A stretch of DNA of 64,000 nt from Dictyostelium discoideum. Taxonomy: Eukaryota. The translations under genes and the position numbers were made by a program. This document shows positions 5,242 through 6,110 of the stretch, in pieces. The notes beneath the pieces are model-generated. The model worked only from the letters and a program-made list of their open reading frames with translations. It did not search any database and had not been told where the DNA came from. Positions within the stretch are counted from its first letter, which is position 1, and every line of letters begins with the position of its first letter. The stretch is from the NCBI GenBank assembly GCA_000004695.1, contig CM000153.2, positions 4,480,001-4,544,000 on the forward strand. The letters are read 5' to 3'.

Positions 5242-6110
5242 TTTTTTTTTTTTTTCAAAAACACTTACATAGAATTTAATGATGAAAAACATTGAAAATC
5301 AATTGGAGATGAACCATTCTAATACCTTCAACAGCTGTTGAACATTATCACAATAATTTATATAAATGATTTATTAGTTAAATAAAATTAGTTAAAAATA
5401 CTCGCCTAAATTATTGCTCATGTTTTATCAGAATCTTGTAATAGAAAAATAAAATAAAATTAAATAAATAAATATATATAAATAAAAATAAAGTAATAAG
5501 TTGATGTTATCGACAATATCTAAAATTTATTATACATGTTTTTTTATTATTGAAAATTTTTACTTATTATATTTGAGATTTAAAATTATGTTTATGAGTT
5601 TTTCAATCGACATTAAAAACTCACCACGTGACTTTTTCCCACCTAGGTGAGAAAAGTCTAATTATATAAACATAAATTATTTTAGTTTGTGAGCGAGATT
5701 GTATCTAATTTAAAATCTTGATAAAACATAATTTTATTGTAACAATTTAATTATTACATAATTATATTACAACAAACAGCTCCCTTGTTATTACATATGA
5801 AATGGTTATATGGATCAAGTGCTACAGCACTACAAAAACTATATCCATTGAATGTTGTATCCAATGGGTGCTCTTTAGAAGCCTGATTAATTTTATTAAA
5901 TAAATGTAATGTACAATTATCTTTTTACAAATGAAAAGGATTGTTGAGATTATTAATTTTCTACTCAAAAAAAAAAAAAAAAAAAAAAAAATTAATTACA
6001 AACTTACACTCTGATTCAATGAGTTGATTTTGTGAATTAACTAAATTTTTATTTTGACATATTATAAATAAAAGTAAAAGAATAATACTATTTAAAACTC
6101 CCATGTTCAT
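2591..6110 (-). pseudogene. LRR-EGF-TM receptor-like family member, copy D, disrupted.
   Basis: The minus ATG at 6110 gives MNMGVLNSIILLLLFIICQNKNLVNSQNQLIESEC, a signal peptide. The EGF-module ORF 3047..3859 is nearly identical to copy C. The TM-containing C-terminal part 2591..3040 is in a different frame, so there is a frameshift at about 3040-3047. The LRR region around 3860-3960 shows a further frameshift and deletion (TGEMDDSGVKLILMLVTLEII then stop, against TGEMDDSWCSITFDISNNLIGGKAPS in the intact copies). Exon 2 is split by a roughly 440 bp insertion at 5337-5774, and an in-frame stop sits at about 5310. Confidence 0.6.
5337..5774. mobile_element. Candidate non-autonomous DNA transposon (MITE-like) inserted into exon 2 of copy D.
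   Basis: The insert is flanked by a 7 bp direct repeat AACAGCT at 5330-5336 and 5775-5781. Its ends are imperfect inverted repeats: the left end reads GTTGAACATTATCACAATAATT, and the reverse complement of the right end reads TGTTGTAATATAATTATGTAATAATT. Inside is a near-perfect 29 bp palindrome GACTTTTTCCCACCTAGGTGAGAAAAGTC at 5630-5658, next to a CACGTG palindrome. Homologous exon-2 sequence in copies A, B and C is uninterrupted. Confidence 0.35.

Follow-up and report, generated by a model that had tools for sequence, protein, structure and literature searches.

The conserved ends of Gypsy-type LTRs and of Ginger (Ginger1) elements follow the pattern TGTNR, or 5'-TG...CA-3' (PMC2836005). Dictyostelid LTRs range in length from 163 to 601 bp, with published values for Dictyostelium discoideum of 390 bp for Skipper-1, 208 bp for Skipper-2 and 265 bp for DGLT-A, and solo LTRs are common in this species: ten are given for Skipper-1 and, for DGLT-A, either five (Table 1 of that study) or eleven (its text) (PMC5006619). 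The D. discoideum elements Tdd-4 and Tdd-5, which belong to the Ginger2/TDD group, are 3.8 kb long, carry terminal inverted repeats (TIRs) of 260-297 bp and are flanked by 5-bp target-site duplications (PMC2836005).

Here, we analyse a stretch of 64,000 nucleotides (64 kb) of D. discoideum DNA, referred to throughout as the window, in which exon 2 of a tandemly repeated gene copy (copy D) received a single insertion of about 439 bp of A+T-rich non-coding DNA, with duplication of 6-7 bp of the target. The insert is compared with paralogous and orthologous sites, and its possible origins are weighed against each other and against the elements described above.

The locus and the insertion

The G+C content of the window is 12-26% per 2 kb. 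Its first 19 kb contain five tandem gene copies on the minus strand, the proteins of which have LRR_ComC, EGF_TEN and TIG domains. Copy D, also on the minus strand, spans about 2591-6107, and the exons of DDB_G0286431 of D. discoideum AX4 are encoded at 272-2353 with 100% identity, which identifies the DNA as that of AX4 or of a nearly identical strain. Three apparently intact tandem ComC-like genes occupy 7639-18790; their best matches are proteins from new assemblies, and the closest protein with an AX4 name is about 51% identical. The only AX4 protein that matches the array is the truncated DDB_G0286431, and the AX4 annotation may treat the other genes of the array differently. Outside the array, positions 54000-56000 show a GC skew of -0.52, with an excess of C over G on the plus strand in otherwise A/T-only intergenic DNA, because of CACACA- and CTCTCT-type tracts.

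A first-pass annotation of this DNA had proposed that an insertion of about 440 bp, missing from the other gene copies, splits exon 2 of copy D in two. Both parts of this proposal are borne out. The insert measures 438 bp and is lacking in all four paralogous exon 2 copies of the window, as seen in their alignment, and at three orthologous sites; the two exon parts that it separates on the minus strand are listed in Table 1 with the other features of the locus. With the insert and one heptamer taken out, exon 2 of copy D is colinear with the four paralogous copies, and the paralogue alignment shows the reading frame crossing the restored junction uninterrupted (...ICNNKGAVEGIR...).

Table 1. 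Features of the insertion locus (window coordinates)
Feature	Position	Strand	Description and basis
Exon 2 of ComC-like copy D, 5' part (DNCTLHLFNK...ICNNKGA)	about 5921-5782	-	Translation and paralogue alignment
Exon 2 of copy D, 3' part	about 5336-5268	-	5329-5268 without the left heptamer; includes lineage-specific 19-nt frameshifting deletion at 5309/5310
Inserted element	5337-5774	.	438 bp, 18% G+C, non-coding
Left copy of target-site duplication, AACAGCT (AACAGC in 6-bp parse)	5330-5336	.	Direct reading; single copy at empty sites in L001 and L005
Right copy of target-site duplication, AACAGCT	5775-5781	.	Direct reading and alignment to empty sites
Left terminus TGTTG (TGTNR pattern), 6-bp parse	5336-5340	+	Perfect 5-bp inverted repeat with 5770-5774
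Right terminus CAACA, reverse complement of TGTTG	5770-5774	+	End comparison and direct reading
Imperfect G+C-richer palindrome	5620-5658	.	Interleaved CTCACC/GGTGAG and GACTTTT/AAAAGTC; CACGTG and CCTAGG cores
Two 20-nt subterminal direct repeats, right end	5726-5745 and 5756-5775	+	85% identity, spacing of 30 nt; short family of two copies, possibly matching by chance

The sequence across the junctions is ...CTTC AACAGCT [GTTGAAC...TTACAACA] AACAGCT CCCTTG..., the insert being enclosed in brackets. The direct repeat AACAGCT that had been described as bounding the insert is exact on both sides. Since a T follows the first six positions of the heptamer, a 6-bp duplication (AACAGC) with a 439-bp element at 5336-5774 is as valid a parse as a 7-bp duplication with a 438-bp element. 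The former gives the ends TGTTG...CAACA; the latter gives the ends GT...CA, unlike those of an LTR. Alignment to the empty orthologous sites shows that no bases are missing from the target, of which 6-7 bp are duplicated.

Orthologous loci and the fate of copy D

Orthologous loci were obtained from other assemblies via neighbouring family proteins. The site is filled in the D. discoideum assembly GCA_054883475.1 (locus L003; 99.8% identity to the window over 20.6 kb), where all 438 positions of the insert are identical (L003 19064-19501). It is empty, with one AACAGCT, in two further assemblies labelled D. discoideum, GCA_054859385.1 (L001; about 88-93% identity) and GCA_054859355.1 (L005; about 88% identity). 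In D. citrinum (L006; about 70% identity) the exon is uninterrupted and the site has diverged. The identical insert in the independent assembly GCA_054883475.1 led us to reject an assembly artefact. On the sequence evidence, the insertion with its target-site duplication is a derived state, confined to the lineage of D. discoideum sensu stricto. The pattern of filled and empty sites indicates that it arose after this lineage had diverged from that of GCA_054859355.1 and GCA_054859385.1, but before the strain of the window and GCA_054883475.1 separated.

Across window positions 149-21092, the identity of L001 and L005 to this DNA is no more than about 82-93%, compared with 99.8% for GCA_054883475.1. 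This low identity points either to a cryptic sibling lineage or to unusually fast evolution of the ComC-like array.

Copy D had been called a pseudogene, a status confirmed by the 19-nt frameshifting deletion in exon 2 and by its broken last exon when compared with the 932-aa orthologue in L005. The frameshift caused by the deletion lies some way beyond the insert, about 20 nt downstream, and the 19 nt are kept in L001, L005 and L006 (...GGAGATAATTTTTTTTTTTTTGTTTGAA...). The last exon is fragmented into 3874-3050 and 3040-2594, and its upstream part is broken as well. In the orthologue in GCA_054859355.1 (L005 19065-22415), which is called as a gene of 932 aa, exon 2 is open and the last exon, of 603 aa, has no interruption. 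To judge from these comparisons, copy D is a case of lineage-specific pseudogenisation within a tandem ComC-like array. The insert and the 19-nt deletion constitute two independent lesions in exon 2, less than 30 nt from one another.

In GCA_054883475.1, a gene model of 1210 aa (L003 18728-23440, corresponding to 6107-1395 of the window) joins copy D to DDB_G0286431, the copy next to it. This model extends from the start codon of copy D into the next copy, so that the insert must be skipped in it as an intron; the fused model is probably an annotation artefact.

Termini and internal structure

Imperfect TIRs of 22-26 nt had been claimed for the insert. The strings quoted for them are present, but similarity over that length is not above chance in an 80% A+T genome, and only the outermost 5 bp (TGTTG/CAACA) are perfectly inverted, a match also found at about 1% of random window positions. 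Around these 5 bp the ends share a loose similarity of 19/26. When the left end was locally aligned with the reverse complement of the right end, using arms of 30, 60, 100 and 200 nt, its score was matched by 528, 83, 239 and 621, respectively, of 2000 segments of 439 bp drawn at random from the window (p of about 0.04-0.3 depending on arm length). No long-arm inverted repeat was found within the insert in a repeat scan, and the element has no long inverted-repeat fold; folded as DNA over its full length, it is only moderately better than shuffled sequences (z-score of -2.7).

The same annotation had drawn attention to a GC-richer palindrome in the centre of the insert. The G+C-richer motif exists, and it is visually conspicuous against surroundings of about 10-20% G+C. 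Rather than a simple palindrome, however, it consists of two interleaved inverted repeats, and its best hairpin, at -10 kcal/mol, is only moderately unusual (among the top 0.8% when all 45-nt windows are counted, but only the top 5% at similar G+C). The central position did not hold up either, as the motif lies at about two thirds of the element's length.

Coding capacity and search for relatives

The longest ORF of the insert is 49 aa, and stops occur in every frame. A full HMMER search for relatives of this ORF gave 0 hits among 1.84 billion protein representatives, and the gene-position index does not record the 48- and 49-aa ORFs of the insert, or the neighbouring exon 3 ORF, as called genes. 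An Rfam scan of the insert returned sub-threshold noise only, with no family, and a tRNA scan detected no tRNA gene in the 64-kb window.

No second copy was detected in the window, where BLASTN searches with the insert and its 40-nt ends gave only low-complexity A/T matches, nor in the six fetched loci (L001-L006), where the sole match was the orthologous copy in L003. The DNA searched for copies amounts to about 175 kb, of which about 87 kb are D. discoideum sensu stricto, and the lack of a second copy in these 87 kb rules out a very abundant family only.

Two of the fetched loci, L002 (GCA_054859385.1) and L004 (GCA_054883475.1), are rich in transposable elements and were reached via Skipper-like proteins, using a Skipper-1 RNase H/integrase query rebuilt from supplement text. 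Both are made up mostly of nested DIRS-1 with Skipper-like fragments, possibly with not every LTR type present, and neither shows similarity to the insert. In L004, inverted arms of about 430 nt (13039-13464 and 18345-18771; 94-99% complementary) flank an 839-aa ORF without a Pfam hit, within a DIRS-1/Skipper-rich region near the end of the contig. This element is probably a DNA transposon, perhaps DDT-like, and it has no similarity to the insert. The G+C-rich core of the insert gave 0 exact-pattern hits in JGI metagenome and GTDB genome contigs, collections that are not expected to include Dictyostelium, and a literature search for Dictyostelium MITEs gave nothing useful.

Several known types of element were tried and rejected. 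Retroposition of the TRE5/TRE3 or any other non-LTR type does not agree with the lack of an A-run at either end and of a tRNA gene in the window. DIRS-1 is at odds with the presence of a target duplication and with the lack of similarity to the DIRS-1-rich loci L002 and L004. A Helitron was discarded on account of the 6-7-bp duplication and of ends that read (T)GTTG...CAACA and not 5'-TC...CTRR-3', and a MITE derived from Tdd-4 or Tdd-5 as a simple two-TIR deletion derivative on account of the missing long TIRs and the wrong duplication length.

Discussion

The insert is an ordinary transposable-element-type insertion event. As to its identity, we tentatively favour a solo LTR or other integrase-type non-autonomous remnant over a classical MITE, because the short TG...CA terminus is the sole end feature that exceeds chance and the insert lacks the defining features of a MITE. 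Within this reading, the TG...CA ends, the 6-bp duplication, the LTR-sized length and the lack of real TIRs make a solo LTR most likely. In the 6-bp parse the insert shows both the TGTNR/TG...CA end pattern and the 4-6-bp duplication of a Ty3/gypsy LTR, the 7-bp parse being equally allowed. Ty3/gypsy elements commonly produce a 5-bp duplication, 6 bp being less typical, and the ends of the yeast Ty3 LTR (TGTTGTAT...ATACAACA) are very similar to those of the insert, a likeness that we regard as a lead only. Against a solo LTR, the DNA searched yielded no full-length parent and no further solo copy.

In such a scheme a DDE-type integrase or transposase would have catalysed the event by means of a staggered cut, and repair of the resulting gaps would have given rise to the target duplication. 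The element would be a non-autonomous remnant, most likely a solo LTR that a degenerate or low-copy Ty3/gypsy-type retrotransposon left behind when recombination between the two LTRs removed the internal part; a short, internally deleted DNA element of the integrase type would be the alternative within the same reading. It would now be functionless, an inert passenger in a dead gene copy. The insertion may have helped to kill copy D, or it may have been tolerated since copy D was already dead.

The profile assigned to the insert in the first-pass annotation was that of a MITE, i.e. a non-autonomous cut-and-paste DNA transposon (438 bp, GTTG...CAACA, 7-bp duplication). To move, such an element would depend on a transposase supplied in trans that binds short repeats at or near its ends. 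Of the profile, a small, non-coding, mobile-like insert with a target-site duplication stands, whereas TIRs beyond 5 bp are not distinguishable from chance, a long inverted-repeat fold is absent and no other copy was found in about 175 kb. With 438 bp and a longest ORF of 49 aa, the insert lies within the MITE size range (under about 800 bp) and is non-coding; its A+T-richness, the exact 7-bp duplication, the shared TGTTG/CAACA with the loose similarity around it, the two subterminal direct repeats at the right end and the z-score of the whole-element fold would all suit such an element. MITE TIRs, by comparison, are typically at least 10 bp long and stand clearly above background, but here only 5 bp are perfect and similarity beyond them is at chance level; the insert lacks a long-arm inverted structure, no second copy was seen in the window or the six fetched loci and an autonomous partner is not known. 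We therefore consider a MITE possible but doubtful. Somewhat further down the scale, and in our estimate unlikely, is a unique piece of non-transposon DNA that entered a staggered double-strand break during repair, by capture or by copying. Fill-in of the overhangs would then account for the 7-bp repeat, and the source could be another chromosomal site, mitochondrial DNA, the rDNA palindrome or a nuclear plasmid. A single copy in all of the DNA searched, the want of convincing TIRs and the fact that nothing marks the insert as a member of a repeat family would be expected of captured DNA. Insertions made during break repair, however, usually come with microhomology or deletions and not with a clean 6-7-bp duplication of an intact target; TG...CA ends with a perfect 5-bp inverted terminus would be expected at random in about 1% of cases; and no rRNA or tRNA signals hint at an organellar or rDNA origin.

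The insert could also be a newly gained, introner-like spliceosomal intron that is spliced from the transcript of a gene that is still expressed. On the sense (minus) strand the inserted region does begin with GT and finish with AG, and the 1210-aa model of GCA_054883475.1 spans it. Enumeration of GT..AG pairs gave only two that keep the frame, from GTTTGT at 5777 or GTAGCA at 5825, both to the AG at 5319; the pair starting at 5777 removes the insert and at the same time compensates for the 19-nt frameshift. The Dictyostelium 5' splice consensus is GTAAGT, from which GTTTGT and GTAGCA are both far removed. The inserted 445 bp are not removed exactly by any GT-AG pair, copy D is further disrupted downstream, and the 1210-aa model is a predicted fusion of two gene copies. 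Judged from the splice-site sequences, intronisation of the insert is unlikely, and as an account of its origin we give a new intron very little credence. Less credible still, to the point of being negligible, is an ancestral sequence that the other lineages and the paralogues lost when the 7-bp repeats recombined. Precise deletions can occur between short direct repeats, but D. citrinum as the outgroup, the L001/L005 lineage and four paralogues, all with an exon that is open across the site, would each have to have undergone the same precise loss, and the insert itself has stops in every frame. Outgroup and paralogues together led us to reject this reading. A solo LTR or other integrase-type remnant remains our preferred, if tentative, identification.

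The locus offers a clean, polarised insertion, filled in two D. discoideum genomes and empty in three relatives, in a model organism with a catalogue of repeats that is considered complete, and it dates part of the decay of the ComC-like copy D to the D. discoideum sensu stricto lineage. The insert might be the first recognised copy of a low-copy mobile family (LTR-only or integrase-type non-autonomous, with a 6-7-bp duplication) that is lacking from the 2001 D. discoideum repeat catalogue and was active after the split from the closest sequenced sibling lineage, a suggestion that we make with considerable reserve; it may instead belong to a catalogued D. discoideum repeat, namely DDT, thug or an LTR family. 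If further copies with these ends and this duplication formed a small family, it would be one minor addition to the D. discoideum repeat catalogue, and the locus could serve as a presence/absence marker for the typing of strains and lineages. The practical value is modest, and no long-standing open question is affected.

Comparison with known elements

Introners, the intron-generating transposons, resemble the insert as transposon-like sequences placed in a coding exon with GT and AG near the ends on the sense strand; the insert differs from them in having no exact splice solution, non-consensus sites, a pseudogene as host and no family of copies found. Generic MITEs, together with DDT and thug, are like the insert in the general features of small size, A+T-richness, non-coding nature and target duplication, but for the insert no TIRs above chance and, in the DNA searched, no second copy were found. 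Tdd-4 and Tdd-5 come from the same species, are of the integrase type and have TG...CA termini like those of the insert; their 5-bp duplications and TIRs of 260-297 bp contrast with its 6-7-bp duplication and lack of long TIRs.

The dictyostelid Ty3/gypsy solo LTRs (Skipper-1, Skipper-2/DGLT-P and DGLT-A/H3R) differ from the insert in several respects. Its 439 bp equal none of the 390, 208 and 265 bp of Skipper-1, Skipper-2 and DGLT-A, a distinction drawn by published lengths only, and the two element-rich loci sampled, which hold Skipper-like and DIRS-1 genes, have no sequence similarity to it. DGLT-A and Skipper-2 sit near tRNA genes, whereas the insertion site has no tRNA gene nearby; Skipper-1 is enriched in centromeric clusters, whereas the insert does not lie in one. 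With these solo LTRs the insert nevertheless shares the TG...CA/TGTNR ends, a short target duplication, a length within their range and a non-coding sequence.
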